From positions 19,579-83,578 of IMG/VR virus record IMGVR_UViG_3300045119_000157: 64,000 nt of DNA; one strand, 5' to 3'. The position numbers and the translations under genes were made by a program. The notes beneath the pieces were generated by a model that was given only the letters and a program-made list of their open reading frames with translations, had not been told where the DNA came from and ran no database searches. Position 1 is the stretch's first letter. Every line of letters starts with the position of its first letter. The DNA comes from a virus. This document shows, one piece after another, positions 1,195-63,046 of the stretch.

Positions 1195-1223
1195 TGGACA
1201 ACGGTGTGCACCGGGTGTACGTT
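1195..1223 (+). promoter_or_regulatory. Class A promoter/operator, copy 1
   Basis: TGGACA-17 nt-TACGTT, palindrome GTGCACCGGGTGTAC at 1206-1220, ATG 6 nt downstream at 1230. Confidence 0.8.
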
Positions 1224-1229
1224 GTGGGC

Positions 1230-1517
1230 ATGGAGCGCACAGCCAACACCAGCAGCGGGAACTTCCCGCAGAAAGGGGACACCATGTCCTTCTCAGTGCA
1301 GGCCGCTTGCCCCATCTGCCGCGAGGCGGTCGTCGAGACGACCGATCCCGGCTTCCACGCCTGCCAGGTCGAAGTCCCGACCTGTCCCGGCTGCCGGTTC
1401 GAGTCCGGCATCACGTCGGCCACTGTCCGCCGGACAGCGTTCATGGCGCTGATCGGCATGGCAGCGAAGCCGGAGACGGTGCTCATGCACCGTGACGGTC
1501 TGGTGGCGTTCGGATGA
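1230..1517 (+). CDS. Small Zn-ribbon protein (cassette gene)
   Basis: CPIC and CPGC motifs; leaderless ATG 1230 or SD-led ATG 1284. Confidence 0.65.
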   Translation: MERTANTSSGNFPQKGDTMSFSVQAACPICREAVVETTDPGFHACQVEVPTCPGCRFESGITSATVRRTAFMALIGMAAKPETVLMHRDGLVAFG

Positions 1518-1651
1518 GCGCCAAGTTCATCGTCGTGTGCGACGACTACCGCATCGAGTGCTCGACGTTGGAGCAGGCGGAACGGCGGCTCGCCGAGATC
1601 GAGCGCGCCGGTCACTGCCGCAACGAGCATCAGATCAAGCCGGTCGGGTAG
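1514..1651 (+). CDS. 45-aa hypothetical protein MSAKFIVVCDDYRIEC...
   Basis: ATGA overlap with the previous stop; not in the ORF track. Confidence 0.55.
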   Translation: MSAKFIVVCDDYRIECSTLEQAERRLAEIERAGHCRNEHQIKPVG

Positions 1652-1662
1652 GCGGCTACCCT
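1646..1662 (+). promoter_or_regulatory. Class B element (GGGTAG-N4-CTACCC) with -10 TACCCT
   Basis: 6-bp inverted arms; GTG start 7 nt after TACCCT. Confidence 0.65.
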
Positions 1663-1669
1663 GCCCGGC

Positions 1670-3409
1670 GTGATCCCGGTCCTGTGGACGACGTTCCATC
1701 CCGACGCGCCGTGCCGCGGCTACTGGGATCAGGGTTGGCTTGAACGTGTCCTATCTGGCCGGGTGCGGCGCACACGCCACGAGTTCGAGTCGGTCGAGGT
1801 GCGTTCGCCTGCACACTGGCCGCATCCAGAGATCGGCGCTGTCGTGGTGCTCCCTGGCAGCTACAACGCTGACCGGATCGCTGAGGTCAACGCGTTCATC
1901 GACCGCCTGTCGTGGGCGGTCCTGTTCATCACTTCTGATGAGGAGTCGCTGTTCCCGGTCGAGCAGCTACGTCACCCGCGGCTCATCGTGTACGTCGAGC
2001 CGGACATGGAGCGCCTGTACGACGACGGCGTCCGGTTCCTCGGGATGCAGTGCAAGGCCGACACGCATGACCTGCTCGCTGAACGGCAGCCGGAGATGGC
2101 GTACCGGAAGGTCGACGTGTTCTTCGCCGGGCAGGTGACGCACGCACGCCGGGAGCGGTGCGCTGACGCGGTGCTGGACGCACGCCGGTACGGGCTGTCC
2201 GTGGATCAGGTGTTCACCGAGTCGTTCACGGCGGGACTGCCACGCGAGGAGTACCTGACTGCGCTGGCGGGCGCACGGGTCGCGCCGTGCCCGTCCGGTC
2301 CCGCGATCGTGGACTCGTTCCGGCTGTGGGAAGCGTTAGAGGCCGGGTGCGTGCCGGTCGCTGACGCCCGGAGGGAAGGGTCGAAGGAGGGCTACTGGCA
2401 GCGTGCGTTCGGTGACCCGGCGTTCCCGATCCTCGATGACTGGTCAGAGTTCCCGCTGGTGGCGCGCCGGATCGTGGACAACTGGCCGTCGGACGCGAAC
2501 CGGGTGCAGGCGTGGTGGCAGCGGTGGCAGCGTGACTTCACCGTCTCGTTGGACGACACGATCGACCGTCTGTCGGGTGTGGGCACGCCGGTCGCGCTGG
2601 CTGACCTGTTGACGGTGATGGTGCCGTCGTCACCGATCGAGTCGCACCCGTCGACTGCGGTGCTGGACGAAACGCTCGACTCAATCGAGGAGCGCCTGCC
2701 GGGTGTCGAGGTGATCGTCGGGTTCGACGGTGTCCGCCCGGAGCAGGCCAAGTTCGTAGGCGTGTACGGCGAGTACGTGAACCGTGCGCTCACCGGGTTC
2801 TCGTTCGGCCGCGGGAACGTGACGCCGGTCGTGCTGCCGGAGTGGGGTCACCAGGCGAACGTGACGAGGGCGATGCTCGATCTGGTGCGGACGCCCGTGG
2901 TGCTGTTCGTAGAGCATGACTGCCCGTTACAGGGCGACATCCCGTTCGACGCGCTCACGGGCCTTGTGGCGGCCGGAGAAGCGAACGTGGTGCGCCTTCT
3001 GCACGAGGCGAACATTCTGGAACCGCACCGGCATCTGATGCTCGACGACGAGCCACGCGACGTGGCCGGTGTCCCGCTGGTCGGGACGATCCAGTGGTCA
3101 CAGCGCCCGCATCTGGCGTCGACCGCGTACTACCGGCACATCTTGCACCGCTACTTCGGGCGTGAGAGCCGAACGATGATCGAGGACGTCATGCACGGTG
3201 TCGTCCAGCGGGCAGCGGAGGACGGCGGCTGGGGAATGGACCGGATCTTCATTTACGCGCCGCCGGGTGACATGAAACGGTCGACGACGTCGGACGGGCG
3301 CGGGTCGGAACCGAAGTTCGACATGCTCGTCGCGTACGACGGGGATCAGCCGGAGTGGGCGCCACGGCCGACGGTCGAGACGGACGAGTACCGGCAGCCC
3401 GCGTCGTGA
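1670..3409 (+). CDS. Two-domain glycosyltransferase (exostosin/GT47-like plus GT-A-like)
   Basis: N-half has DVFFAGQ, PCPSG..DSFRLWEALEAGCVPV; C-half has VIVGFDG and VLFVEHD. Confidence 0.7.
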   Translation: MIPVLWTTFHPDAPCRGYWDQGWLERVLSGRVRRTRHEFESVEVRSPAHWPHPEIGAVVVLPGSYNADRIAEVNAFIDRLSWAVLFITSDEESLFPVEQLRHPRLIVYVEPDMERLYDDGVRFLGMQCKADTHDLLAERQPEMAYRKVDVFFAGQVTHARRERCADAVLDARRYGLSVDQVFTESFTAGLPREEYLTALAGARVAPCPSGPAIVDSFRLWEALEAGCVPVADARREGSKEGYWQRAFGDPAFPILDDWSEFPLVARRIVDNWPSDANRVQAWWQRWQRDFTVSLDDTIDRLSGVGTPVALADLLTVMVPSSPIESHPSTAVLDETLDSIEERLPGVEVIVGFDGVRPEQAKFVGVYGEYVNRALTGFSFGRGNVTPVVLPEWGHQANVTRAMLDLVRTPVVLFVEHDCPLQGDIPFDALTGLVAAGEANVVRLLHEANILEPHRHLMLDDEPRDVAGVPLVGTIQWSQRPHLASTAYYRHILHRYFGRESRTMIEDVMHGVVQRAAEDGGWGMDRIFIYAPPGDMKRSTTSDGRGSEPKFDMLVAYDGDQPEWAPRPTVETDEYRQPAS

Positions 3410-3428
3410 ACGTCCACCCGGCCTGACA

Positions 3429-3444
3429 GGTAGCGGGCTACCCT
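3429..3444 (+). promoter_or_regulatory. Class B element
   Basis: GGTAG-CGGG-CTACC, TACCCT, GTG 7 nt downstream at 3452. Confidence 0.65.
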
Positions 3445-3451
3445 CCCGGTC

Positions 3452-4228
3452 GTGAACATCGCGGTCATCAACGAGTCAACCCTGCTCGAAGAAGCATCCG
3501 TCCAGTTGATTGTCGACGCGCTCCGTACGTCGCTGCGGGTGTTCTCGTACGACTGGGATCTGGTCATGCCGAACGTCGAGCACGGCCACCGCGGTCAGGA
3601 ACAGATCGAACTCGCGGAACGGCATCCGTGCATCATCGTGCTCCTCGATGACGCTGATCAGGCTGGCGCGCTCGGGTATCACGCGACGACACCGGACGGG
3701 AAGCCGTACGCCGCAGTGTTCGTGCGTGACTCCGTCCATGACCTCGGGAACGTGTCCGCTGTGCCGTCCCCGGTGCCGGTGCAGATGGTCGCTGACTACG
3801 TCGTGCAGGTCGTCGACCACGAGGCGAAGGAAGCACTCCTCGACCCTGACGCGGCGGACTTCGTGGACGCTGGCGACGGTTCGCTGTGGGCGAAGGAGGC
3901 GTGCGACGCGGTCGAGTCGGAGGTGCTGTACGTGACCGCGTCGGCGACGGAGACACGATGCGTCGTGTCGGACTATGTGATGCCGTCGTTCTTCATGGTC
4001 GGGTCGCCGGGTCCGTATGACCGGGCGGGCGTGTTGAAGGCTCCGTTCACGTTGGCGCCGGGCGGGTACACGATCGTCGAGCAGGGCGGCACGGTGTCGC
4101 AACGGTTCGGTGACATGGCGGACGGGTGGCGGCGCGCGAAGCATGAGGCAGCGTTCACAGCGGACCCGACGGCGACGGCGACGGCGTCTCGTACGGGCTG
4201 GCGGGTCGTGCGCGCAGCCATCCAGTGA
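3452..4228 (+). CDS. Putative metallopeptidase-like protein
   Basis: DDADQAGALGYH, HEAKE..DP and E.CD.V motifs. Confidence 0.5.
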   Translation: MNIAVINESTLLEEASVQLIVDALRTSLRVFSYDWDLVMPNVEHGHRGQEQIELAERHPCIIVLLDDADQAGALGYHATTPDGKPYAAVFVRDSVHDLGNVSAVPSPVPVQMVADYVVQVVDHEAKEALLDPDAADFVDAGDGSLWAKEACDAVESEVLYVTASATETRCVVSDYVMPSFFMVGSPGPYDRAGVLKAPFTLAPGGYTIVEQGGTVSQRFGDMADGWRRAKHEAAFTADPTATATASRTGWRVVRAAIQ

Positions 4229-4419
4229 TCCGCTACTACGTCCGCTGCGCTACATGCGCCGTCGAGTACGAGTTGACGCGGGAGATCATCCACGGGCCGT
4301 TCCCGCTCGAAGATGGCGGTGTGTTACGTGAGGCCGTCTGCCCGCGGGACAAGACGATGATGTGGCGGCAGGTCGACTATCCCGACGTGGAACCTGAGAT
4401 CCATCGGCGGGTCCAGTGA
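4225..4419 (+). CDS. Small Cys-containing hypothetical protein
   Basis: CATC...CPRD; 4-bp overlaps at both ends. Confidence 0.55.
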   Translation: MIRYYVRCATCAVEYELTREIIHGPFPLEDGGVLREAVCPRDKTMMWRQVDYPDVEPEIHRRVQ

Positions 4420-4817
4420 CGGAGTGCAACGGCTGCGGGTCATGCTGCGACCCGGTCACGATCCCGTATACGAAACTCGACGCTGCGACGGACTACACGC
4501 TCGACGACCGGACGCGGCGCTGGGTGCTCGACGACCTGACACCCATGTCACGCCGTGACGTGCTGGACCGGGAGCCGTGGCTGCTCGACAAGTCGACCCG
4601 TCTCTCCGCCGCTGTCGACGGCGGCGACCTGTTCGTCCCGTACTTCTATTCGTGCCGCTGGTTCGATGAGACGGAGCGGCGGTGCACGAACTGGGATGAC
4701 CGTCCGGCGCCGTGCCGGATGTACCCGTGGCTTGACGAGCCGCAGCCGACGGCTGCGTTGCCGCCGACGTGTTCGTTCCGGGCGGACATCGGGCAGCCCG
4801 TCGAGATCCGTGCCTGA
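4416..4817 (+). CDS. YkgJ-family cysteine-cluster (CxxCxxCC) protein
   Basis: CNGCGSCC ... C.WFD...RCT.W..RP..CR.YP signature. Confidence 0.8.
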   Translation: MTECNGCGSCCDPVTIPYTKLDAATDYTLDDRTRRWVLDDLTPMSRRDVLDREPWLLDKSTRLSAAVDGGDLFVPYFYSCRWFDETERRCTNWDDRPAPCRMYPWLDEPQPTAALPPTCSFRADIGQPVEIRA

Positions 4818-4926
4818 TCGTGATCGTTCGGGTGTGGTGCCGGGTCCGTGAGCACAAGTGGGGTCCGTGGCAGTTTCTCACCTGCCGAGATCAGTACCGG
4901 GACTGTTCGCGTTGCGGGATGCGCGG

Positions 4927-5931
4927 ATGGAAACGGTGACCCGTCTCGGCGTTATCGCCAGAGCGGACGACGGCGGCCTTGGCCAACAGACTCGTGAGGT
5001 CGTAGAGCGGCTTGACGCGGACGTGACGCTCGCTGTGCTCCTCGGGCCGAACGCCCGTGGTGTCGAGAACTTCGCCCGGTTCGCCGGACGGGAGACGGTC
5101 GTGAACCGTGGGCCACGGTTGGAGGACGACGTCCTCGACGCGGTCCTGTCGAAGTGCGACGTGCTGTACACGATCGAAGGACCGTACGCGCCGGACCTGT
5201 TCGAGCGGTGCTGCGCTGCTGGTGTGCGGCTCGTGATCCACGCGAACCCGGAACTGTGGCGCGGATGGGACTGCCACAAGCTGATCGTCCCGACCGACTG
5301 GCGTGTCCCGCACGACGCTGAAGTGTTCCCGTTCCCGGTCGACACCGTCCGGCTGCGCCCGTCAGCGCGGGCTGAGATCCCGACGTTCGTGCATGTGACC
5401 GGACCGGCGATGCTCGACCGTCAGGGCACACAGCTAGTCGAGGGAGCGTTCCGCCACATCCGCCACGAGTGCGAAGTCATCCTCCGCTGCGACGGCATCG
5501 ACGACACGCACGGTGTCGGCAACGTCCGGGTCCGCACGATGCCACGGACCCGCGACTACTGGGAAGCGATCCCCGACGGCTGCTGGGCGCTATTGCAGCC
5601 ACGCCGGTACGGCGGACTTTCGCTGCCGATACAGGAGGCCGCGGCACGGGGACTGCCGACGATCTGCCTGGACCGGGAGCCGGAGTCGACGTTCTACGGT
5701 CTGGTGACGGTCCGCTGCCCGGTCACGGAGACGCAGCCGCATCACATGGCCGGAGGCACGATCGACGTCGCTGACTGCGACCCGGAGGTGTTGGCTGCGA
5801 CGGTCGACGAGTTCATCGACCGGGAACGGGACCGGCCGCTGCTGTCGTACGCGCCGCATGAGCCGCGCTGGTGGGCGGAACGCCACTCATGGGACCGGCT
5901 CCTGCCCGTGTACGAGGCGCTCCTCCGATAG
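4927..5931 (+). CDS. Glycosyltransferase (GT-B, GT4-like)
   Basis: GGLGQQT near the N-terminus, PVDT, PRRYGGLSLPIQEAAARGLP, C-terminal SWDRL; start uncertain (4858 possible). Confidence 0.75.
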   Translation: METVTRLGVIARADDGGLGQQTREVVERLDADVTLAVLLGPNARGVENFARFAGRETVVNRGPRLEDDVLDAVLSKCDVLYTIEGPYAPDLFERCCAAGVRLVIHANPELWRGWDCHKLIVPTDWRVPHDAEVFPFPVDTVRLRPSARAEIPTFVHVTGPAMLDRQGTQLVEGAFRHIRHECEVILRCDGIDDTHGVGNVRVRTMPRTRDYWEAIPDGCWALLQPRRYGGLSLPIQEAAARGLPTICLDREPESTFYGLVTVRCPVTETQPHHMAGGTIDVADCDPEVLAATVDEFIDRERDRPLLSYAPHEPRWWAERHSWDRLLPVYEALLR

Positions 5932-5935
5932 GGGC

Positions 5936-5964
5936 TGGACAGATGCGTACACCGGGTGTACGGT
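5936..5964 (+). promoter_or_regulatory. Class A promoter/operator, copy 2
   Basis: TGGACA-17-TACGGT, perfect GTACACCGGGTGTAC at 5947-5961, ATG at 5971. Confidence 0.85.
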
Positions 5965-5970
5965 GTCTAC

Positions 5971-6186
5971 ATGACCCGGAACCACACCCTCCACTTCGAG
6001 ATCACGACCACCAGCGGCGAGATCTTCACCGAGCAGTCCCGGAACAGCCTCGGCGGTCACTTCAACATGATGCGCCGCATCGCTGCCCGCTTCGGTGTGG
6101 ACAGGGTGACGCCGGTCGATGAGTCCGGGCGCAACTGGAACGCCGGGAGCACGACCTTCACGATGGCCGAAGTCAACAAGCTGTAA
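5971..6186 (+). CDS. Hypothetical cassette protein
   Basis: Leaderless ATG 6 nt after the -10. Confidence 0.65.
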   Translation: MTRNHTLHFEITTTSGEIFTEQSRNSLGGHFNMMRRIAARFGVDRVTPVDESGRNWNAGSTTFTMAEVNKL

Positions 6187-6203
6187 TCCACCACCTGAGA
6201 GAC

Positions 6204-6554
6204 ATGGAGAAGCCGATGAGCACCATCTGGACGGCAGGCCCGCAGGAGGCCCGTCGCTGCACAGAGACAGTCCTGATGCAGTTCGGGATCTTCGGGCGCC
6301 GACCGCACACTGGCATCGGCGTCCTCGGCGCTCTCATGGAAAACGGCTGGACGTACCGACCCGTCGAGGTCGACGGCGCTGAGTACCGCGGCACTGTCCG
6401 ACGGTTCTGCCGGGAGCACCCGACCGGCCGCTACTACGTGGCGACATCGGGTCATGCGATGGCGGTCATCGACGGTGTCCTCGTCGACTCCGCAGAGCGC
6501 GGCCCGGACGGCCGTCGAGTGATCGGCGCGTTCGAGGTTTACCCCGCCGCCTGA
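6204..6554 (+). CDS. Hypothetical cassette protein (MEKPM start)
   Basis: Start motif ATGGAGAAGCCGATG; GRYYVATSGHAMAVIDG.L.DS segment. Confidence 0.7.
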   Translation: MEKPMSTIWTAGPQEARRCTETVLMQFGIFGRRPHTGIGVLGALMENGWTYRPVEVDGAEYRGTVRRFCREHPTGRYYVATSGHAMAVIDGVLVDSAERGPDGRRVIGAFEVYPAA

Positions 6555-6608
6555 CCACTCTCAGCGGTCCGCATAGTCGAGGCGCGTTGTCGGGTACAGT
6601 CCCCGGCG

Positions 6609-6962
6609 ATGCGCGATGAGGACATCCACGTCCACGTTCACGTCCACGCGGACGACGAAGTGTTGCGTGTCCTCCGCACCCTCGAACAGCAAGGAACCGT
6701 CATCATGGCTGACCTGTCCCAACTCACCTCCGACGTCACCGCGAACGGGTCGGTCGTCGACTCCGCCGTCACGCTCCTGAACAGCCTGGCGCAGCAGATC
6801 CGTGACCTGTCCACCGATCCCGCCGCGCTCGCTGACCTCGCCGCGTCGCTCGAAGGCCAGTCCGCTGACCTCGCCGCCGCGGTCCAGGCGAACACGCCCG
6901 CCGCGCCCGAGCCTGCCCCGGCACCGGAACCCGCACCGGCACCCGAGGCTCCTCCCGCCTGA
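6609..6962 (+). CDS. Coiled-coil hypothetical protein with Pro-rich tail
   Basis: TACAGT 8 nt upstream of the ATG; APEPAP repeats. Confidence 0.65.
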   Translation: MRDEDIHVHVHVHADDEVLRVLRTLEQQGTVIMADLSQLTSDVTANGSVVDSAVTLLNSLAQQIRDLSTDPAALADLAASLEGQSADLAAAVQANTPAAPEPAPAPEPAPAPEAPPA

Positions 6963-6968
6963 ACCCCT

Positions 6969-7010
6969 GTCCGGGTCGCGGCTACTTCCCAGGGCGGTCG
7001 CGACCCGGAC
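6969..7010 (+). terminator. GC-rich hairpin, probable terminator
   Basis: GTCCGGGTCGCG / CGCGACCCGGAC, 12-bp perfect stem. Confidence 0.65.
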
Positions 7011-7023
7011 TACCAACAAACAC

Positions 7024-7053
7024 TGGACAGCATCGGTGCACCGGGTGTACGTT
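7024..7053 (+). promoter_or_regulatory. Class A promoter/operator, copy 3
   Basis: TGGACA-18-TACGTT, GTGCACCGGGTGTAC at 7036-7050, ATG at 7060. Confidence 0.8.
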
Positions 7054-7059
7054 GAGTAC

Positions 7060-7302
7060 ATGGAAAAGCCGATGAGCACCTACGTCGAGGAGATCCCCGC
7101 CGCCGCCGTATGCGCCGGAGACTGGATCAAGACCACGGGGCGCCCGTCACCGATGCTCGTGCTCGGCAACCTCCGCCAGCGGACCGCAGACGGTCGCCGT
7201 GGTCGCCGTGCTCGTCCGTGGGCAGCGACTGTCCAGACCGATGACGGTCCGATGGATCTCTACATCGGTGAGACGGTCATCCTCTGCCGCCCGCCTGCGT
7301 GA
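7060..7302 (+). CDS. Hypothetical cassette protein (MEKPM start)
   Basis: Start motif ATGGAAAAGCCGATG. Confidence 0.65.
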   Translation: MEKPMSTYVEEIPAAAVCAGDWIKTTGRPSPMLVLGNLRQRTADGRRGRRARPWAATVQTDDGPMDLYIGETVILCRPPA

Positions 7303-7316
7303 ACTAGACAGACGTC

Positions 7317-8204
7317 GTGGTCGACGTCTTCTGCTCAGCGGCTCACTACGCCCGGCAGATACGCCCGATCTACGACCTGCTCCCCGACACGCATCGGGGG
7401 ACGTGGTACGACGCGCATGAGGATCCCGGCGGCGGAGACGTCATCGTCGTCGGCGCATACCGCGACCTCAGATGGGTCCGCGGCCGCTACCGCCGCTGCT
7501 GCCTCGTGGAGCACGGCATCGGCCAGTCCTATGCGACGCAGCCGGATCACCCGGCGTATCCGGGCGGCAACCGCGACGCGTATGATCTACTCCTCGCACC
7601 GGGTCCGGCTGTCGTCGATGCGTCCGCCTGCTCGACGGTGTATGTCGGATCCCCGACGGCACGGCAGGCCGGGTCGGATAGTTCTCCCCGCACCCGGTTC
7701 GCCGTGTCGTTTCACTGGGACTGCGGGATAGCGGTCGAGGCTGGGACCGCGTTTTGGGAGTATCTCCCGCACTTGGCGCGGCAGGCCGAGAAGCTGCCCG
7801 GCGGTCTACTGGTGCACGCGCACCCGCGGATCGCTGACGAAGTGTTCGGCCAGACGGCACGGGTGGCGGGGTTGGAGCCGTGCCCGTCGTTCGAGCAGGT
7901 TGTGGACGAGGCGTGCGTGTACGCGGTGGATAACTCATCGACGTTGTACGAGTTCGCTGCGCTTGACCGTCCCGTGGTCGTGTTGAACTCGCAGTTGTGG
8001 CGCCGGGACGTGTTTCACGGGAAACGTTTCTGGCAGTGGGCGGACGTCGGCGAGCAGATCGAGAGCGGCGGACAGTTGGCGGGCGCGATGCTCCGTGCCG
8101 TCGAGGTGGACCCGTGGGCTGAACGTCGCCGCGTGATCGTCGGTGAGGTGTATGCGGGTGATACGCAGGCTGGCGTCGATGCGCTAGTACGGTTGCCGCC
8201 GTGA
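7317..8204 (+). CDS. GT-B fold transferase (CDP-glycerol glycerophosphotransferase-like)
   Basis: VEHG, HAHP, and DNSSTLYEFAALDRPVVVL motifs. Confidence 0.7.
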   Translation: MVDVFCSAAHYARQIRPIYDLLPDTHRGTWYDAHEDPGGGDVIVVGAYRDLRWVRGRYRRCCLVEHGIGQSYATQPDHPAYPGGNRDAYDLLLAPGPAVVDASACSTVYVGSPTARQAGSDSSPRTRFAVSFHWDCGIAVEAGTAFWEYLPHLARQAEKLPGGLLVHAHPRIADEVFGQTARVAGLEPCPSFEQVVDEACVYAVDNSSTLYEFAALDRPVVVLNSQLWRRDVFHGKRFWQWADVGEQIESGGQLAGAMLRAVEVDPWAERRRVIVGEVYAGDTQAGVDALVRLPP

Positions 8205-55431: not shown

Positions 55432-55473
55432 CGGCGGTGACGGGAGAACGGCTCCCGGCGAAAGGTGGCTCCG

Positions 55474-56120: not shown

Positions 56121-57368
56121 ATGGATACCACCACACGAAACGCGACTCTCACGGACCTCGCGGTGATGCTGCGCGAGCAGCACGCCCGGAAGCTCGACAT
56201 GGTCGTGCCCGCCAGCCAGATCCGCTCGGAGGAGGGCGTCCTCGTGGTCGCCGGAGCCGAAGCGCAGATCGACCTTGACGGTGTCACCGTCGCCGACGGC
56301 GAGTACCGGCCGACGGTGATCTGTGACGAGGGGATCGCGGACAAGCTCGGCGTCCCCGTCGCGTACCTGAAGCGGATGCGCGAGTCCCGCCCGGACCTGT
56401 ACGACGCCAACGTGAACGGCTGGCTGCACGGCTACGAAGGCCGTGTCGAGAACCTCGTCGTGACCGGCGAAGACGCAGTCGAAGCGGACACCCGGTCGTT
56501 CCTGCTCCGCTGCTTCCGCGGCGACGTCGGGAAGCAGGGCATCGCCCGTGCGTTCCTGTCGAACGGCTACAAGGTCATCGACCACCTCGACGTCCTCACC
56601 GCCACACTCGACGGGATCCGCGAGTCCGGCACGCCGGTCGACATCATCGGCTGCGACCTGACCGACCGGAAGATGTACGTCCGAGTCGCGGCACCCGAGA
56701 TCGCGGTCCTCGCGCCGACGCTGCTCGCCGGGTACCGCTCACCGGCTTTCGAGCACGGCCGCGGCCGTGACGCCTGGTCCTCGATCGACCGGATCCGCGA
56801 GGTCGCCGCGCGTGAGGGGAAGGGCTACGAGCCGGGGAAGGAGCCGGTCGTGTTCGCCGGGTTCGAGATCAGCAACAGCGAGACGGGCGGCGGCGCATCG
56901 ACGATCACGCCTCGCCTGATCGTGGAGATCTGCCGGAACGGGTTGAAGATCCAGCAGGACATTCTCCGTGCCGTGCATCTCGGGTCGAAGATGGACGACG
57001 GGATCGTCCGCTGGTCCGATGACACGCAGCGGAAGCAGTTGCAGTTGATCACCGCTCAGGCCCGCGACGCGGTCGCGACGTTCCTCGACGTCGAGTACGT
57101 CAAGACGGCTGTCGGCCGGTTGGAGGCGAAGGCGGGCACGCCGGTCCGCCACGCGGCGGAGACAGTCGAGACGGTCTGCAAGACGCTCCGGTTCAGCGAG
57201 GAGCACACCGCGGGCGTCCTCGATCACTTCATCCAGGGCGGGCAGATGACGGCGGGTGGCGTGATGCAGGCGGTCACGTCGTTCGCTCAGACCATCATGG
57301 ACGCCGACGACGCGGCAGCGTTCGAAGCGCAGGGTGTCCGTGCACTGGAACTCGCGGCACAGTCGTAG
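56121..57368 (+). CDS. DUF932-like protein
   Basis: RAFLS..Y..ID, G..ISNSETG.G, .C.NG, H.G motifs. Confidence 0.7.
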   Translation: MDTTTRNATLTDLAVMLREQHARKLDMVVPASQIRSEEGVLVVAGAEAQIDLDGVTVADGEYRPTVICDEGIADKLGVPVAYLKRMRESRPDLYDANVNGWLHGYEGRVENLVVTGEDAVEADTRSFLLRCFRGDVGKQGIARAFLSNGYKVIDHLDVLTATLDGIRESGTPVDIIGCDLTDRKMYVRVAAPEIAVLAPTLLAGYRSPAFEHGRGRDAWSSIDRIREVAAREGKGYEPGKEPVVFAGFEISNSETGGGASTITPRLIVEICRNGLKIQQDILRAVHLGSKMDDGIVRWSDDTQRKQLQLITAQARDAVATFLDVEYVKTAVGRLEAKAGTPVRHAAETVETVCKTLRFSEEHTAGVLDHFIQGGQMTAGGVMQAVTSFAQTIMDADDAAAFEAQGVRALELAAQS

Positions 57369-57378
57369 CCGCTAGGTC

Positions 57379-57426
57379 GCTCGACGGCCGGGTTCTCGTA
57401 TCGCCCCGAGACCCGGTCCGTCGAGC
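57379..57426 (+). terminator. Long hairpin, probable terminator
   Basis: GCTCGACGG-CCGGGT-TCTCG / CGAGA-CCCGG-T-CCGTCGAGC. Confidence 0.7.
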
Positions 57427-57880
57427 ATTCAACTTGTCCGAGGGAGAACTGATGATGGAGGGAGTCGAGTTATGCGCGAGGTGCCGAGGGGAACGCCGGG
57501 TCGTCCGGAACGGGCTGCCGGTGAAGTGCCCGGCCTGTCATGGGTCTGGCTTGTGGTCGCCGTCGCCGTTGGAGCCGTCGCGGCGGGTGCGGCTGGTGTG
57601 GCTGTCATCTGGATCGCGGGCGTCGGCGGCTGGTTCCGGTTCACCGTCGCGCTGCTGATCGTGGGGATCTGCGCGCCGATCATCCACAGGTCGCAGCCGT
57701 GACCGCCGCCGATGACGTGTTGTCTCTAGATGAATGGCTCTCGATCGCCTCGGCCATCGGGCGCGCCGAACGTCAGATGCGGTCGCTCACCAAAGTCGGG
57801 GATGTGCGAGCGGAGGATCTGTCTCTGCTCGACGATGCCTGGAATCATCTATGGCGGATGCGTCGGGAAGGGCGCATCTA

Positions 57881-58273
57881 ATGAGCACGCCGGGTCCGGC
57901 TTCGCGGCTGCGGACGCTGTATCGCCGCCGGGAGTGGCTGAAGGACAGGCTGACTGGCGATCTGACACCGGGCGCTCACCGTGCCGCTGCGGAGGAGCTA
58001 GAAGCGTTCGAGTGGATGCTCCCGATCGTTGAGCAGGTCGTCGTGAACGTCAACGCTGAGGCGTACGACGTGAACAGGCAGCGCGTCGAGAACGGGTGGC
58101 GTGTCGTGGCGAAGCGCGCTGCGAGGTTCATGTTCAGCGTCGACATCGAGGAGTGGGACCGACTCGTGTCGGGTGTCCCGCCGCAGGTTGAAAGGTCGCT
58201 CCGTGGCGACGTGGAACGCTGTCTCGCTCGCGCGAGCGGCGCATCGCCCCCGTGGCACAGGCAGATGCCGTAA
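57881..58273 (+). CDS. Hypothetical protein
   Basis: TAATG coupling with the upstream small ORF. Confidence 0.5.
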   Translation: MSTPGPASRLRTLYRRREWLKDRLTGDLTPGAHRAAAEELEAFEWMLPIVEQVVVNVNAEAYDVNRQRVENGWRVVAKRAARFMFSVDIEEWDRLVSGVPPQVERSLRGDVERCLARASGASPPWHRQMP

Positions 58274-58430
58274 CGTTTCCGTAACGACGATATGAGGGCG
58301 AGCGGCCCGGCCAGCGACGACGACGTCCAGGCCAGCGCCACGCCGGGCGAGACCATCGTGTCCGCCGGGTGCTTCACTCGCTAGACCTCGGCGTAACCGC
58401 GCTGCCCCGACCGACCCTCGGAGGGGACAG

Positions 58431-58988
58431 TTGCGCCGATTCCTAGCCGTATCCTGCTTTGCCGTTCTCGTGTTCGGAGCCGTAGCGGCTCACCACCCGC
58501 AAGCCCCGACAGCGTCCGTGACGGCCGCAGCGCCGGGTAGCCCGTTCCCGCCCGTCTGGTCGCTCTCACAGGCACCTAGCGCCGTATCCGCGGCTTCCAT
58601 GACCGCAGCCGGGATACGAGCACGGGACGTGGACCGCTGGTACGCGACCGCCGCCGCGGACGCCCCGGTCGTGTACGAGATCCGCGGCAAGAACCGGGTC
58701 GTGTCGCTACCGCGGAAGTCGGACACGCCCACGACGACGGCGGGGAACGGGACGTGCGGCGGCGACCTCCCATCGTGCTCGATCATGCGATGCGAGTCCG
58801 GCGGCAACACGACCGCGGTGAACCACAACTCGATCCGCCCGGCCGGTAAATGGCAGATCACGACCGGAACGTGGGGCGGGTACGGCGGCTACGCGACAGC
58901 GGATCAGGCGCCTGAAGCGGTGCAGGACGCGAAGGCGCGGGAGCTATGGCGGGGCGGCGCCGGGCGAGGCCAGTGGGCGTGCCGCTGA
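58431..58988 (+). CDS. Secreted Rpf-like lytic transglycosylase
   Basis: Signal-peptide-like N-terminus; CESGGN, G.WQI...TW..YGG, A....Q...A..L...G..QW.C. Confidence 0.8.
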   Translation: MRRFLAVSCFAVLVFGAVAAHHPQAPTASVTAAAPGSPFPPVWSLSQAPSAVSAASMTAAGIRARDVDRWYATAAADAPVVYEIRGKNRVVSLPRKSDTPTTTAGNGTCGGDLPSCSIMRCESGGNTTAVNHNSIRPAGKWQITTGTWGGYGGYATADQAPEAVQDAKARELWRGGAGRGQWACR

Positions 58989-59065
58989 CTGTTCACCGGC
59001 CGTTCGTGGACAGGTTGTGGATATGACCGTTTGCCGGGTCGGGTAGCTGGGTACACTCGACGGGC

Positions 59066-59419
59066 GTGGACATGTTCACCGCCCGCGAAGTCCGTGTCAC
59101 CGCCGGGCTAACCCCGGAGGCGCTCGACTACTGGACCCGCACCGCTCTCATCGTTCCCGACGGCGGTCTGTACTCGGCCCGGTCGCTGAGCCTCGCTGTC
59201 GTGCTCGCTGAGGCGTCCCGGCTCGGCGCTCCCGGCATCACCCTCGCTCGTATCGCTGCCCGCCTGACGGGCGAGCCGCACGAGTGGCCGGACCTGTGGA
59301 TCACGTCGCACGGCGAGGTCCACTTCGACGACGACGCGCCCGCGTCGATCGTGCTGCACACCCGCCGGGTGCTCGCGCACGCCGCGCCGATGCTGCACCA
59401 CGCCCTCTCCGCCGCGTAG
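59066..59419 (+). CDS. MerR-like HTH protein
   Basis: FTAREV...AGLT...LDYW.R..LI.P. Confidence 0.65.
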   Translation: MDMFTAREVRVTAGLTPEALDYWTRTALIVPDGGLYSARSLSLAVVLAEASRLGAPGITLARIAARLTGEPHEWPDLWITSHGEVHFDDDAPASIVLHTRRVLAHAAPMLHHALSAA

Positions 59420-59685
59420 CCTCAGGGTTCGCCGACCCGTGTCTCCTCGGGGACCGGGCTGCGGAGGCCCGCCCGCCGTGGCGGGCTTCTGCGTATCCCG
59501 CGCCGGGCCGGGTGTGGACATCTACCGTTCCGGGTGTGGACGTGTGGGCGGACCTCGGCGACGACGAGCTTCGTGCACGCCTGTCGGCCCGGCTGTCTGA
59601 CGCCGGGTTCGTGGACTGGCTGGTGTGGCAGCGCGAGAACGAGGACGTGATCCCGCACCTCGCCGCCGTCCTCGCAGATTAGGAC

Positions 59686-59714
59686 TGGACAAGCCCGTAC
59701 ACCGGGTGTACGTT
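59686..59714 (+). promoter_or_regulatory. Class A promoter/operator, copy 10
   Basis: TGGACA-17-TACGTT, perfect palindrome; ATG at 59721. Confidence 0.85.
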
Positions 59715-59720
59715 GTACCC

Positions 59721-60017
59721 ATGACCACGAAGGAGACTCCGATGGAGACCACGACAGCGAAGAACCCCGGCGAGCAGGTGCTCGTCGATGCCGGTATCAC
59801 CAGCCCGACTGCATGGCGAGCCTTCAAGGCCGAAGCCCACTACGTCATGAACTGCACGGGCGGCCGGTACTCCGACGCCATGCGGACCGCCGTGAGCCAC
59901 GGCCTGAATGACCTCACCAGCCCGGTAGCGCAGGGCATCGTGGCCGAGTGGGCGGCGCAGGACATCAACCTTCCCGGCACGCCTGAGCGTGACCTCAACG
60001 CAGGCTGGGGGCTGTGA
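59721..60017 (+). CDS. Hypothetical cassette protein
   Basis: Leaderless ATG, with in-frame SD-led ATG at 59742. Confidence 0.6.
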   Translation: MTTKETPMETTTAKNPGEQVLVDAGITSPTAWRAFKAEAHYVMNCTGGRYSDAMRTAVSHGLNDLTSPVAQGIVAEWAAQDINLPGTPERDLNAGWGL

Positions 60018-60163
60018 TGAGTGCGAAGCCGAACTGCCCGTTCTGCGGCGAGACCGGCCGTGAGCGCGATACAGACCGCGAGCCACGACCCATGTGGGTT
60101 TGCGCGGGTTGCGGAATGACATGGGACGAGGCACGGCAAGCGGCGAAGGAGGCGGCGCGCTGA
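60017..60163 (+). CDS. 48-aa Zn-ribbon protein
   Basis: CPFCG...CAGCG; TGATG coupling at both ends; not in the ORF track. Confidence 0.55.
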   Translation: MSAKPNCPFCGETGRERDTDREPRPMWVCAGCGMTWDEARQAAKEAAR

Positions 60164-60834
60164 TGCCGCGGGGTCTACGAGCCGCGGTGCTGAACACCGA
60201 AGCGGCGATGCGCGAGCAGGCGTACGTGACGATGATCTTCGCCGCGGAGGCGTGGCTGCCCGCTGCGTGCTGGTGTGACACGGAGATGATCGGGGTGCAG
60301 CAGCGCGAGGTCTGGTGGGGCGTGACGCGGTCCTGCGGCCGTCCGCGCTGTGTGCACCCGGAGACGGGCGAGCAGCGCCTCGGGATGGGCGTCAGCCCGG
60401 CGGGCGTCGTGTACGACGTCTCGTGCCTCGAATGGGACGGCGTCGGCCTGTACACGTCGGGACGGTCGGGCGGTCCCGTCGGGCCACGGAACCCGGCACG
60501 CGTGCTCGCCCGCCGTGTCCGGAGAAGCGACGGAGACGCCCCTGTGTGCGCCCCTAAGCGCCGCGAGGCGGCACACCCGCCGTACCGGGCACCGAACCGG
60601 GTGCAGACGGCGAGACAGGGACGGCAGCCGGACCCGGAAGTCGCTCGGCGTCGTGACCTCGTCGCCGGGCTGTACGAACTCGGCCTCGGGTACCGCGAGA
60701 TCCACGCCCGCCTCGAAGCCCAGTTTCCTGGCGTGTCCGTGGCGGCGATCCAGCAGGACTTCCAGCTTGTCCGCGGTCGTGGCGTGTTGGCGGGAAGATG
60801 GACTGGACAGCCAGGTACACCGGGTGTACATTGA
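60163..60834 (+). CDS. Cys-containing protein with C-terminal HTH
   Basis: RR..V..L...G..YREI...L.....S...I..D. Confidence 0.55.
   Translation: MPRGLRAAVLNTEAAMREQAYVTMIFAAEAWLPAACWCDTEMIGVQQREVWWGVTRSCGRPRCVHPETGEQRLGMGVSPAGVVYDVSCLEWDGVGLYTSGRSGGPVGPRNPARVLARRVRRSDGDAPVCAPKRREAAHPPYRAPNRVQTARQGRQPDPEVARRRDLVAGLYELGLGYREIHARLEAQFPGVSVAAIQQDFQLVRGRGVLAGRWTGQPGTPGVH
60804..60832 (+). promoter_or_regulatory. Class A promoter/operator, copy 11
   Basis: TGGACA-17-TACATT, perfect palindrome; ATG at 60839. Confidence 0.85.
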
Positions 60835-60838
60835 GCAC

Positions 60839-61057
60839 ATGGAGAAGCCGATGAGCATGAACAGCGAGAAGTCCACGGTCAGGGTGCAGCCGATGTTCGG
60901 CTCCAACAGCCGCTGGTACGTCGAGGTCGAGACGGTCCGCACCATCAAGGGTGCCACGACAGTCGAGTACCGGACGGCCGGGAAGTTCGCAGCCAAGTCC
61001 GTCGCAGACCGGGCAGCCGCCAAGGTGGCAGCCGAAGTCCACGGGACCGTCCGATGA
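60839..61057 (+). CDS. Hypothetical cassette protein (MEKPM start)
   Basis: ATGGAGAAGCCGATG. Confidence 0.65.
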   Translation: MEKPMSMNSEKSTVRVQPMFGSNSRWYVEVETVRTIKGATTVEYRTAGKFAAKSVADRAAAKVAAEVHGTVR

Positions 61058-61311
61058 GCGTGACACCGCACACGGACGGCATGATCCGCGTCCAACACGA
61101 CTCACTCCCGTACGGGTACGCCGACGGCTACCTGACCGACGACGGCCTGTTCGTCACCCGCCGCGACGGCGCCGGATGGCTGTGGGACGTGTGGGCCAGC
61201 GTCGAAGCGTTCTGCACGCACCGCAACAACCCGGCGGCACTCGTCGCCGGGAACATGAACCTCGCCGCCGCGCTCGCGGCAGCGACCGAACAAGGAGAAT
61301 CCGATGGATGA
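61054..61311 (+). CDS. Hypothetical protein
   Basis: Coupled ORF. Confidence 0.55.
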   Translation: MSVTPHTDGMIRVQHDSLPYGYADGYLTDDGLFVTRRDGAGWLWDVWASVEAFCTHRNNPAALVAGNMNLAAALAAATEQGESDG

Positions 61312-61582
61312 CATGACCATGACCGCACCGGGCGTAGACGCCTGGTTCCGTGAGGAAGGCCGGTCGCCGTTCCAGACAGCGGTCGCGTGGTGCCGCCTCG
61401 TAGACGCCGAGAACTCGGTGAACTTCGTGACGGGCACGCTGAACCATCCCGCCGTCGAAGCACTCGCCGCGCTGCGCCGCGAGGTGTGGAACCTGCTCTC
61501 GGAGCAGACCGCGTCAGACGCCGAGACACGCCAGATGTTCCTCGACCGTGCCCGCAGCTACGTGAGAGGCGAAGACCGATGA
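61304..61582 (+). CDS. Hypothetical protein
   Basis: AAGGAGAATCCGATG start. Confidence 0.6.
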   Translation: MDDMTMTAPGVDAWFREEGRSPFQTAVAWCRLVDAENSVNFVTGTLNHPAVEALAALRREVWNLLSEQTASDAETRQMFLDRARSYVRGEDR

Positions 61583-61809
61583 CCCGCACGGTGAACGTCC
61601 CGCTCCGCTGGCTGCCCGGCACGAACGGCACCCAGTGGGCGAACGCGAAGACCCGCAGCAACCTGCTGGTGAAGGTCACGTTCCACCCGTCGTCGGGTTA
61701 CACGGTCGAGGAGGTCGACGAACTGACCGGCCAGCCGGTGAAGACGCTGTCCGGGTCGTTCGCGACGCAGGCCGAAGCCGTCATGGCGTACGGGTTGGAG
61801 GCACCATGA
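61579..61809 (+). CDS. Hypothetical protein
   Basis: ATGA overlaps. Confidence 0.55.
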   Translation: MTRTVNVPLRWLPGTNGTQWANAKTRSNLLVKVTFHPSSGYTVEEVDELTGQPVKTLSGSFATQAEAVMAYGLEAP

Positions 61810-62075
61810 AGACCTACGAGGTGGACGTGACAGCGCAGGCGCTCCGGGTCATGAAAGTCCGGGCAGCGTCAGCACGCGAAGCGCTCGAACTGGCGTCGCT
61901 CCGTATCCGAGGGCGTTCCGGGCCGTGGACGATCGACTTCCCCGGCGTAGAGGACGAACACTTCACAGTCAGCCTGGACGGCGAAATCCTCGGCCCGAAC
62001 TCCGAGGGCGACTTCAGCGAGTACATGACCTACGACGATGAGGAGCAGCAGGACGATGACGACGAAGACGCCTGA
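61806..62075 (+). CDS. Hypothetical acidic-tailed protein
   Basis: GGAGG SD; MKTYEVDV. Confidence 0.55.
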   Translation: MKTYEVDVTAQALRVMKVRAASAREALELASLRIRGRSGPWTIDFPGVEDEHFTVSLDGEILGPNSEGDFSEYMTYDDEEQQDDDDEDA

Positions 62076-62271
62076 CGGGCTGGCCGACGTGAAACGCGCG
62101 GCGCGGGCTGTCACCCGGATCGAGACACGCCTCGACACAGCGAAGGCGATCCGCGACGCCGCGATCGCTGACGCGTTCTCGTCGGGGGTCGGGACACGCC
62201 CGATCGCTGCGGTGACGGGCCTGTCGAACTCGGGTGTCCGCAAGATCCTCGGCATCGGCAGTCCACAGTGA
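62056..62271 (+). CDS. Small HTH protein
   Basis: RDAAI..A...G...R.IA..TGLS..GV.KIL. Confidence 0.65.
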   Translation: MTTKTPDGLADVKRAARAVTRIETRLDTAKAIRDAAIADAFSSGVGTRPIAAVTGLSNSGVRKILGIGSPQ

Positions 62272-62794
62272 ACGTCGAGATCACGGTCGACGTCACCGTC
62301 GCTGATGATGCTGATGTCAGCGCGCTCGGTGACGACCTGTTCGGGTTCCTCTGCGATGATCCTGACGACCTGTTCCCGGCCATCGAGACGGTCTGGTCAT
62401 GGCGCGGGCGGACGCTGCCGTGACGATCACGTTCGAGCCGCTCCCGGTGCGTCCGCTCCCATCCCGCGTCGAGGCACGCGAGGCACGCCAGCGGGTAGCG
62501 GCGGAGATGCGCCGCCGTCGCCTGTGGACGAAGGCGGAGACACGGGCGTTCTACGATCGGCTCGTGCACCACGACAAGCTGCGTCTCGGGCGCGCTGTCA
62601 TCGACGCGATCAGCCAGGCCGGACGATGACGACGCCGTCCAAGAGCCGATGGGCGCTCGATCCCGTCGTGGCGGTCGGGATGATCGTGGCGGTCCTCGCC
62701 GCGTGGCTGCTAGTCGAGTTCGTCCTATGAGACCTCAGGTGTCGGCGCCGCTTTAGCGGTACCGGCGATAGCACCCGAGGGGAGGTGAAAGCTC

Positions 62795-62953
62795 ATGCCG
62801 TTCCACAGCACCATCACGGACAACATCGCGGGTAACGCGGAGGCGTCCAAGCTGGCAGCGACGGGACTAGTGGCGCTGCTCATGGCGTACGCCGGTCGCG
62901 TGATCGTGAAGCGCAAGGATCTCCGCGCTGACGAGACGTTCGACGCCGCCTGA
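62795..62953 (+). CDS. 52-aa peptide with one hydrophobic helix
   Basis: GGGAGGTG SD; MPFHSTITDNIAGNAEASKLAATGLVALLMAYAGRVIVKRK...; not in the ORF track. Confidence 0.6.
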   Translation: MPFHSTITDNIAGNAEASKLAATGLVALLMAYAGRVIVKRKDLRADETFDAA

Positions 62954-62960
62954 CAAGTTC

Positions 62961-63009
62961 GTGGTGGCGGCTCTCCTACGTCGGGGGACTGCCGGGGAGC
63001 CGCCATCAC
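62961..63009 (+). terminator. Hairpin, probable terminator
   Basis: GTGGTGGCGGCTCTCC / GGGGAGCCGCCATCAC. Confidence 0.7.
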
Positions 63010-63017
63010 CGCACCGC

Positions 63018-63046
63018 TGGACAGATCCGTACACCGGGTGTATATT
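63018..63046 (+). promoter_or_regulatory. Class A promoter/operator, copy 12
   Basis: TGGACA-17-TATATT, GTACACCGGGTGTAT; ATG at 63053. Confidence 0.85.

Follow-up and report, generated by a model that had tools for sequence, protein, structure and literature searches.

The question raised by this stretch of viral DNA is why the same short palindrome stands inside one promoter-like sequence after another, and whether a protein binds it there. The stretch (hereafter the window) is 64,000 nucleotides (nt) long and comprises bases 19579–83578 of the 83,578-bp IMG/VR virus record IMGVR_UViG_3300045119_000157. The element, which we call class A, consists of a −35 hexamer, a −10 hexamer, and the palindrome GTACACC-G-GGTGTAC, which fills the spacer and overlaps the −10. 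An earlier inspection of the letters of the window (the sequence-only reading) had listed twelve copies and proposed that one dimeric protein controls them together. Having analyzed the copies in the whole genome, we incline toward the combined statement that each is a promoter with a dimer-bound operator; taken separately, the element is very probably a promoter, and the palindrome is probably a protein-bound operator. Positions are those of the window unless they are given as genome positions, which are those of the record.

Number and Placement of the Class A Element

The window was scanned for the palindrome GTACACCNGGTGTAC, allowing at most two mismatches. Ten matches were found, compared with 0.20 expected from 100 shuffled sequences, none of which reached 10; the remaining two window copies (cores at 39798 and 54540) have three mismatches. 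A further eight precede the window; their cores are at genome 1349, 6579, 7132, 7700, 8682, 10873, 17138, and 17678. The genome total is 20 copies over 83 kb, and all 20 are on the + strand. A genome-wide search for the geometry T[TGA]GAC[AC]-N16-18-TAnnnT gave 19 sites on the + strand and none on the − strand, where a Markov model predicts 0.5 per strand. All 19 sites are class A copies, and no promoter-like sequence of such geometry was found without the palindrome; the 20th copy (39786) escapes the pattern because its −10 is TACGGG. The palindrome was never seen outside this promoter context, the two other matches with three mismatches being intragenic and without a −35. The twelve window copies are the same twelve that the sequence-only reading had listed, all on the + strand, and its positions coincide with the starts of our pattern matches.

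A restriction-site effect was rejected as an explanation of the repeated GTAC, since the genome shows no avoidance of this tetranucleotide (359 occurrences expected, 378 observed).

In nine of the twelve window copies, the element overlaps the upstream stop codon or starts at most 20 nt from it. The remaining three (cores 7036, 39798, and 63029) are each preceded by a strong hairpin with a stem of 15–16 pairs and no T tail. For the genome as a whole, a strong terminator-like hairpin stands upstream of 3 of the 20 copies, leaving 17 without one. The sequence-only reading had placed most copies near a stop codon, as we found, and two behind a hairpin, which is one hairpin too few.

Anatomy of the Predicted Promoter Unit

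The unit reads C-TGGACA, a spacer, and TA(C/T)NNT. Its −35 hexamer is close to TTGACA, being TGGACA in 16 of the 20 copies, TAGACA in three, and TTGACC in one. The spacer is 17 nt long in 16 copies and 18 nt in four, and a TANNNT −10 is present in 19, copy 39786 again being the exception. The palindrome takes the form GTACACC-G-GGTGTA(C/T) and is followed by G(T/G)T, which completes the −10 hexamer. It is a symmetric 7+1+7 dyad whose left arm is the exact mirror of the right arm. With the A of the ATG taken as +1, the −35 lies at −35 to −30, the −10 at −12 to −7, and the palindrome, centred at −17, at −24 to −10.

In the information profile of the 20 copies, the CTGGACA block and positions 0–18 are conserved, and nine positions (T1, C3, A4, C5, G9, T10, G11, T12, and A13) are invariant. 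The linker between the −35 and the palindrome, which is 5 nt long (6 nt in four copies), is nearly free (0.08–0.42 bits). The 5 nt after the −10 are weakly constrained; the linker and these bases together span 0.08–0.5 bits. With such free bases beside the conserved palindrome, the conservation tracks position and not recent copying. The anatomy, copy number, strand bias, and conservation profile are direct observations.

The class A copies of the window, together with the hairpins that precede three of them, are listed here; lengths of the open reading frames (ORFs) are in amino acids (aa).

1195–1232, + strand: class A copy; TGGACA, 17-nt spacer, TACGTT, 6 nt, ATG; predicted leaderless start of a 95-aa ORF
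5936–5973, + strand: class A copy with perfect palindrome; TACGGT, 6 nt, ATG; 71-aa ORF
6969–7010, + strand: strong hairpin upstream of copy 7024; 15-pair stem, no T tail
7024–7074, + strand: class A copy with 18-nt spacer; ATG 7060 and in-frame GGAA-led ATG 7072; 76/80-aa ORF; heads the unit that contains the portal gene
10856–10905, + strand: class A copy 2 nt past the portal stop codon; ATG 10891, second ATG 10903; 47/51-aa ORF
39728–39775, + strand: strong hairpin upstream of copy 39786
39786–39854, + strand: degenerate class A copy; 3 mismatches, −10 TACGGG, 18-nt spacer; 5-codon ORF 39823–39840, then AAGGAGA-led ATG 39852 of a 490-aa weakly GHKL-like protein
48022–48081, + strand: class A copy with perfect palindrome; GTG 48058 and in-frame AAGGAGA-led ATG 48079, which starts a UvrD-type helicase
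54528–54566, + strand: class A variant; TTGACC, 18-nt spacer, 3 mismatches; ATG 6 nt after the −10; 143-aa ORF
54993–55030, + strand: class A copy; TAGACA; ATG 6 nt after the −10; 61-aa ORF with a marginal coding score
55402–55476, + strand: class A variant; TAGACA, 18-nt spacer, central CTA; not leaderless, with ATG 55474 at 42 nt after the −10; 87-aa ORF
59686–59744, + strand: class A copy with perfect palindrome; ATG 59721 and in-frame GGAGA-led ATG 59742; 91/98-aa ORF
60804–60853, + strand: class A copy with perfect palindrome; ATG 60839, second ATG 60851; heads a run of small ORFs that includes a 71-aa helix-turn-helix (HTH) candidate
62961–63009, + strand: strong hairpin upstream of copy 63018; 16-pair stem
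63018–63067, + strand: class A copy; ATG 63053, second ATG 63065; 92/96-aa ORF; a class B element (described below) and the endolysin gene follow

Two copies have unusual downstream sequences. At copy 39786, the stop codon of the 5-codon ORF, which begins at the predicted +1 ATG, overlaps the Shine-Dalgarno sequence of the main ATG at 39852. The copy with its core at genome 10873 (region 10862–11275) has no start codon and is followed by about 375 nt without a convincing ORF, up to the class B element at genome 11271. These 375 nt gave no Rfam match and a weak fold (z −1.5); they could be a non-coding RNA or a long leader.

Translation Starts Behind the Copies

An ATG begins exactly 6 nt after the −10 in 16 of the 20 copies. 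Nine of these are in the window, the number that the sequence-only reading had given. Among the copies that depart from the 6-nt rule, one has a GTG at 7 nt that starts an ORF, and one has an ATG at 7 nt that opens only the 5-codon ORF. Two have no start codon at +1, one of them having a 42-nt leader and the other no ORF. Three copies have a leader of 20–40 nt.

In 11 of the 20 copies the sequence runs on as ATGGA(G/A)A(A/C)(G/A)CCGATG(A/G)GC, which supplies a GGAG or GGAA Shine-Dalgarno sequence and a second ATG, in frame, 12 nt downstream of the first. Two further copies have AAGGAGA-NCCG-ATG in frame 21 nt downstream. A second ATG led by a Shine-Dalgarno sequence is therefore present in 13 copies, and the two starts are in frame in 13 of the 14 copies that hold both. 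The first ORFs appear to be genuine coding sequences: 18 of 19 had a codon score that was positive in the frame of the ATG and negative in both other frames.

The start block is also found apart from the promoter. The sequence GGA[GA]ANNCCGATG occurs 19 times on the + strand and not at all on the − strand; 14 occurrences follow a class A copy and 5 are at other gene starts. Judged by this distribution, the block is a separable sub-module, because those 5 of the 19 have no promoter copy before them. One fragment deserves a line of its own.

6204–6224, + strand: isolated 3′ part of the unit (ATGGAGAAGCCGATGAGCACC) where a 116-aa ORF starts; no promoter-like sequence precedes it

Together with the two bases preceding it, this fragment is identical over 23 nt to the consensus of the promoter unit that we composed for the comparison. 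In IMG/VR, the start block ATGGARAMRCCGATGAGC was found as a single occurrence in each of 24 stretches.

In Mycobacterium smegmatis, SigA prefers a −10 of the form TANNNT at −6 to −13, leaderless transcripts make up 24% of the total, and translation needs no more than an ATG or GTG at the 5′ end (PMC6448022). The sequence-only reading had proposed sigma-A promoter geometry with leaderless starts. The geometry fits, and a start codon stands at the predicted +1; the 13 second starts led by Shine-Dalgarno sequences and the three leaders indicate that the set is not purely leaderless.

Proposed Function of the Class A Element

What follows is our inference from these features; it concerns the activity of the copies as promoters, the point where transcription starts, the binding of a protein, whether that protein represses or activates, and which protein it is. 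Each copy would be a strong promoter for the primary sigma factor of the host (SigA/HrdB type). Transcription would start at the A located 7 nt after the −10, which in 16 of the 20 copies is the first base of the ATG, and the resulting leaderless mRNA would be translatable from its 5′ end. In the 13 copies with a GGAG(A) Shine-Dalgarno sequence inside the first codons, ribosomes could also be led to the second in-frame ATG 4 or 7 codons on, and the same protein could be started in two ways. The 15-bp palindrome would be the operator of one dimeric DNA-binding protein, most likely encoded by the phage. Bound at −24 to −10, the dimer would cover the −10 and silence all 20 promoters together. In a lytic phage this could serve as an early-to-late switch and in a temperate phage as a means of global silencing.

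Two features of the sequence carry the operator part of this proposal. At T1, C3, A4, and C5 the left arm of the palindrome does not vary, although promoter function sets no fixed sequence for the spacer in which this arm lies, and the arm adjoins a free linker; this argues for a site read by a symmetric dimer. Repression is the simplest outcome, because a protein at −24 to −10 would cover the −10. The idea of the sequence-only reading that one dimeric protein co-controls the copies thus gains support from the invariant left arm in the spacer, and binding of that protein is what we would predict.

Several results weigh against the proposal. In a check of window 54001–64000, no run recorded as RNA contained the sequence. 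A scan of window 1–20000, which holds four copies, for E. coli-type TTGACA/TATAAT promoters (at least 9 of 12 matches) returned no sites, because TACGTT matches TATAAT at three of six positions. The right arm of the palindrome overlaps the −10, so that promoter function alone would explain part of its conservation. The spacer of 17–18 nt and a dyad centre at −17 fit a repressor, but they are compatible with an activator too. The candidates for the regulator have weak family support, and sequence searches of PDB with four of them gave nothing significant. No integrase was found among about 70 distinct proteins scanned, which leaves the version with an immunity repressor unsupported and makes the timing of a switch a guess. 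Finally, the same arrangement of −35, palindrome, and −10 was found in one of 100 loci from relatives. These loci were collected by portal alignment (8 from IMG/VR, 80 kept of 188 from metagenomes, and 12 from genomes), and all are at most 38% identical.

A broader form of the proposal would make the whole head of about 57 nt, with its promoter, private operator word, and two-way start (MEKPMS.../MS...), a portable expression unit that is placed before new ORFans and exchanged between copies, one phage dimer timing about 20 such units while class B elements restart the core genes. We regard this form as doubtful. If it were true, an 83-kb genome read from one strand would be organized by a promoter grammar of two words, and the double start would insure the phage against shifts in the translation state of the host during infection.

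Alternative Explanations

The element could be a promoter and nothing more, with a palindrome that no protein binds and that was kept by descent from one very good promoter or because such a spacer aids recognition by polymerase. Part of the conservation can be read in this way: T12 and A13 of the right arm are the first two bases of the −10, G9–G11 are located where extended −10 contacts occur, and four copies have the discriminator GAGTAC in common, which favors common descent. Common descent would, however, have conserved the linker along with the left arm, whereas the linker is nearly random (0.08–0.42 bits) and the adjoining arm is invariant at four of its seven positions. Spacer effects do not require the left arm to be an exact mirror of the right one, and the TG is at −14/−13, one position away from that of a canonical extended −10. 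We therefore consider a promoter with an unbound palindrome to be rather unlikely.

A protein at the palindrome might instead act positively, as a phage activator, as a sigma-appropriating protein of the middle or late class, or as a MerR-type protein bound in the spacer. Proteins of the MerR family bind dyads between the −35 and the −10, and this phage encodes a 117-aa MerR-like protein; copies also precede structural genes such as those for portal and capsid. The promoters themselves seem to have no need of an activator, the −35 and −10 being near consensus and the spacer being of the optimal length of 17 nt in 16 of the 20 copies (18 nt in four). MerR-type promoters have overlong spacers of 19–20 nt with the dyad in the middle; here the spacer is 17–18 nt, and the dyad, centred at −17, overlaps the −10. 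Positive control is accordingly another explanation to which we give little credence.

The copies could also be heads between which small genes are swapped, lost, or circularized, in the manner of the promoter-early stem-loops (PeSLs) of T4-type phages, for which this has been described (PMC2839356). The head of about 57 nt, which includes the first 5–7 codons, is common to eleven unrelated ORFs, and the ORF at 6204 carries only its 3′ part. The first ORFs are orphans, 2 of 17 having any match in 1.35 Mb of DNA from the relatives. Joints were examined in contigs from three soil metagenome runs over window 44001–64000. All joints at copies have short sides of 21–54 nt. Contigs from copies outside this stretch fit there at 80% likeness (for example, the copy at genome 6579 and that at window 63029 agree at 52 of 60 positions). 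The joints were rejected as evidence of exchange, their short sides being explained by copies outside the examined stretch, and no credible joint at a copy was left in the three runs. One clean variant of gene size was found: a minor contig from soil run X2 (depth 4.1, compared with 17.7) skips 320 nt (window 44564–44885), which is the whole of a 107-aa gene, but neither of its borders is flanked by a class A copy. Exact identity between copies is short and often confined to the 15-bp core, and the short repeats of the Cluster O mycobacteriophages take part in few if any rearrangements (PMC4351075). Recombination as the main function of the copies is in our view quite improbable.

Phages are known to borrow host regulators, and the palindrome might copy the site of a host protein, so that the state of the host would gate the phage promoters; the phage-encoded regulator is, after all, at the candidate stage. 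The exact palindrome was present in 1 of 401 sampled Actinomycetota genomes, in a single copy, although the true host may lie outside the sample. In five genomes with related prophages, near matches at one mismatch numbered at most four, with no enrichment. We consider mimicry of a host operator to be very improbable.

A function at the RNA level, in which the palindrome would form a hairpin that terminates, processes, or stabilizes the upstream message, is suggested by the placement of most copies within 20 nt of an upstream stop codon and by the frequent lack of a U tail in actinobacterial terminators, but it is the least credible explanation of all: three of four folded copies are no more stable than shuffled sequences (z −0.01, −0.31, and −0.43; the fourth −2.29), the palindrome hairpin is missing from the minimum-energy fold in three of the four, the stem has at most 6–7 pairs with a loop of 1–3 nt, the three copies that need insulation have a separate hairpin of about 15 pairs, and the fixed distances to the −35 and the ATG would be left unexplained.

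Candidate Regulators

If the class A palindrome is the operator of a phage protein, its gene may be among the following.

59066–59419, + strand: 117-aa MerR-like HTH protein; Atlas gave MerR_1 in 27 of 30 feature neighbours and TM-scores of 0.73–0.83 to MerR_1 models
62056–62271, + strand: 71-aa protein with a C-terminal HTH; phrog_686 at E 0.0014, HTH neighbours in Atlas; in the unit headed by copy 60804
46354–46581, + strand: 75-aa winged-helix-like protein; weak match to HTH_24 (E 0.005)
47475–47726: 83-aa protein, picked by eye only
Genome 1055–1333 (region 1015–1333), just upstream of copy 1349: ribbon-helix-helix-like ORF; weak HicB-like match at the C-terminus (E 0.005)

The MerR-like protein has three homologues, 56–70% identical. 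Pfam and PHROGs scans of the small proteins were mostly empty, and no regulator candidate passed a curated cut-off. Of the five HTH proteins suggested by the sequence-only reading, those at 46354, 62056, and 59066 (the last by Atlas only) received weak support, and those at 47475 and 60163 received none.

The start of the ribbon-helix-helix-like ORF is preceded by a different palindrome of 14 bp, TAACGTATACGTTA, and a GTATAC repeat; the right part of this palindrome resembles the class A right arm.

The sole long gene on the − strand (genome 10075–10797) encodes a 240-aa protein rich in Thr, Ser, and Pro, with a signal peptide, a C-terminal LARTG motif, a hydrophobic stretch, and a basic tail. 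In these features the protein looks like a sortase-anchored surface protein. It had been considered as a repressor and was rejected as a Thr/Ser-rich protein with a signal peptide and LARTG anchor.

Genes Behind the Copies and Predicted Transcription Units

By the searches described here, the first genes behind the copies are mostly small orphans. One of the 19 first ORFs, the UvrD-type helicase, passed a Pfam cut-off; the GHKL match of another was weak (19.6 bits, with a cut-off of 25). When all called proteins (121, with 17 of the 19 first ORFs represented) were compared with one another by blastp, no pair was obtained at E 1e-3, which indicates that the first ORFs are not paralogues. In tblastn searches of the 1.35 Mb from the 100 loci, 2 of 17 first ORFs had any match, whereas structural genes matched many loci.

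Transcripts from class A copies would probably run on into larger genes (portal, capsid, and helicase), for example from copies 7024 and 10856 into the portal and capsid genes, because only 3 of the 20 copies are insulated by hairpins and a terminator scan was at the level of chance (8 found in window 1–20000, 6.7 expected). The sequence-only reading had described a regulon of small orphan genes, with a helicase, a GHKL ATPase, and a DUF932-like protein among its cargo. The small orphans are there as first ORFs, and the helicase is confirmed by Pfam; the description is too narrow if larger genes are read through, the GHKL assignment is weak, and the DUF932-like protein (perhaps a 415-aa protein) has no Pfam match and no class A copy directly before it.

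A second conserved, promoter-like element, class B, has the form G-GTAG-N4-CTAC-CC(T/G), followed by 7–8 nt and then ATG or GTG, and lacks a TTGACA-like −35. About 9–10 copies are present on the + strand.

Window 1648, 3430, 41423, 44198, 46961, 50623, and 63362, and genome 4882 and 11271, + strand: class B elements

Class B elements head larger genes, namely those for the terminase, a 579-aa protein, the Gam/RecT unit, a DnaD-like protein, a ParB-like protein, and the endolysin. In at least five places, a short class A unit is followed by a class B element that heads a larger gene.

Source Genome and Its Relatives

The first 143 bases of the record recur as its last 143 (genome 1–143 and 83436–83578, the latter being window 63858–64000), and one contig from a soil run crosses from the end of the record into its start region. 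Given this end repeat and the bridging contig, the assembly forms a circle of about 83,435 bp. At the end of the window the endolysin gene is truncated; it resumes at the start of the record.

The G+C content is 62–69%, and a codon-model gene call gave 121 ORFs, 119 of them on the + strand. PHROGs scans placed the large terminase at genome 4904–6559, the portal at window 8473–10854, and the major head protein at window 13199–15007, and also assigned a head-tail adaptor. Further family assignments were Mu Gam-like, RecT-like, and DnaD/HTH_36-like proteins, a VRR-NUC nuclease, a UvrD-type helicase, a ParB-like protein, a DpdA-like transglycosylase, a radical-SAM (QueE-like) enzyme, GTP cyclohydrolase I, methyltransferases, a glycosyltransferase, and an endolysin. 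Window 50637–54531 carries a set of genes for 7-deazaguanine modification of DNA, whose products are a ParB-like/methyltransferase-like protein, the DpdA-like transglycosylase with an extra C-terminal domain, the radical-SAM QueE-like enzyme, and GTP cyclohydrolase I. One glycosyltransferase gene and two methyltransferase genes are situated at genome 12328–16114, between the gene for the terminase and that for the portal.

Compared with the portals of cultured actinobacteriophages, those of Cluster O mycobacteriophages included, the portal protein shows an identity of about 35% at most. Related prophage regions are found in Streptomyces genomes and in actinomycete metagenome-assembled genomes, and DNA of the phage is present in the three soil metagenome runs. 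On the strength of the portal likeness, these prophage relatives, and the soil runs, we take the source to be an uncultured actinobacteriophage from soil; no sign that it is temperate was seen. A megablast search of window 1–24000 and 40000–64000 in 50,697 phage records gave no match, and a search of IMG/VR with the capsid protein gave no related locus. Closer relatives by portal, 53–79% identical (P0002–P0014), exist in the Logan, NCBI, and JGI data. In the relatives, the 643-aa protein is conserved only over its C-terminal part.

Repeated Promoter-like Units in Relatives

We screened the 56 relatives' loci of at least 9 kb for 12-mers repeated at least four times. On inspection, three of them, L059, L080, and L095 (5 copies), carry repeated promoter-like units of their own. 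In L059 (portal about 30% identical; positions 1362–16757), the unit TTGACA-cccacg-N4/5-cgtggg-TAnnnT is present in 6 copies in 22 kb, with an ACCCACG/CGTGGGT dyad in the spacer; as far as its sequence tells, this is the same layout with a different palindrome. In L080, TTGACA-N17-TA(T/A)AGT-7 nt-ATGAGC is present in 6 copies and is leaderless. A generic scan of the 100 loci for an inverted repeat between a −35 and a −10 gave three or more hits only in L059. The exact 15-mer of class A was found once in each of 21 IMG/VR stretches, in none of them in the context of a −35. In a distant relative, L108, the palindrome TCCCAC(C/G)GTGGGAA is present at at least 14 places, often beside a conserved TCTGGAAGGAGCA ribosome-binding block.

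Comparison with Known Systems

Repeated promoter units in phages are already known, and the present case opens no new field. The PeSLs of the T4-type phages RB49 and phi1 combine a strong sigma-70-type promoter with a terminator stem-loop, and recombination and mini-circles have been demonstrated for them (PMC2839356). Class A resembles the PeSLs, with which the sequence-only reading had already compared it, in that a strong sigma-70-type promoter unit recurs in many places among small genes, most of them unknown. It differs in the absence of a terminator hairpin from 17 of the 20 copies, in having a palindrome inside the promoter, in its predicted leaderless mRNA, and in its actinobacterial host. 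A promoter joined to a terminator stem-loop, the combination that defines a PeSL, was not what we found: a strong hairpin is near 3 of the 20 copies, and the internal palindrome forms no stable RNA hairpin.

The mycobacteriophages of Cluster O (the Corndog group) have predicted leaderless SigA-like promoters and more than 30 copies of a 17-bp dyad, TGTTCGG-N3-CCGAACA; because these dyads are mostly away from promoters, their authors thought it unlikely that they act in transcription initiation (PMC4351075). The Cluster O phages are distant relatives (portal about 28% identical), and the two cases share inverted arms of 7 bp, predicted leaderless SigA promoters, the lack of an integrase, and a left arm that has genes for methyltransferase and glycosyltransferase close to the one for the terminase, which in Cluster O is displaced (PMC4351075). 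They differ in that all 20 dyads here are in promoters and in the sequence and arm spacing of the dyads. The stoperators of Cluster A phages (L5 and Bxb1) are asymmetric sites, bound by a monomer, that also stop elongation within operons (PMC9283540). Like them, the class A sites are of one kind, are numerous throughout the genome, and would control many units at once under one predicted regulator; unlike them, the class A site is a dyad, symmetric, that keeps a set place between the −35 and the −10.

Lambda provides the nearest analogy for the proposed mode of repression. Its PR/OR and PL/OL are two regions with tandem operators and a known repressor pair, Cro and CI. As in lambdoid early units, the class A dyad overlaps the −10 and spacer of what would be a strong early promoter, where a dimer would block polymerase; here, in contrast, there are 20 single operators, and the regulator is at the candidate stage. 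Other arrays are known from phages of actinobacteria, namely the conserved inverted repeats (CIRs) at early promoters of the Streptomyces phage phiC31, which like the stoperators are many sites through which one regulator controls many units, and the start-associated sequences (SAS) at translation starts of Cluster K mycobacteriophages. The block GGAGANNCCGATG is comparable to the SAS in standing at the translation start of a subset of genes and on one strand only (19 on +, none on −). Its sequence is different, it is mostly fused to the promoter unit, and it encodes the first codons (MEKPM).

Apart from the Cluster O paper, a literature search (supplementary files not covered) returned no many-copy array of operator-bearing leaderless promoters in actinophages. 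Judged from its sequence, what sets the present case apart is the combination of a dyad in every promoter-like copy, 20 copies throughout the genome including the region of the virion genes, a leaderless start, and an in-frame second start.

If the promoter-operator interpretation holds, one short DNA word would be a handle on the whole early program of an uncultured soil actinophage. The 20 sites would mark transcription units and name about 19 small proteins that are expressed strongly together, and the interpretation predicts one regulator that could be found by its binding to a 15-bp probe. The compact unit of promoter, operator, and leaderless or Shine-Dalgarno start could be used as a tightly switchable part for expression in high-G+C actinobacteria, and its in-frame leaderless and Shine-Dalgarno starts would be a natural test case for the use of two initiation routes.

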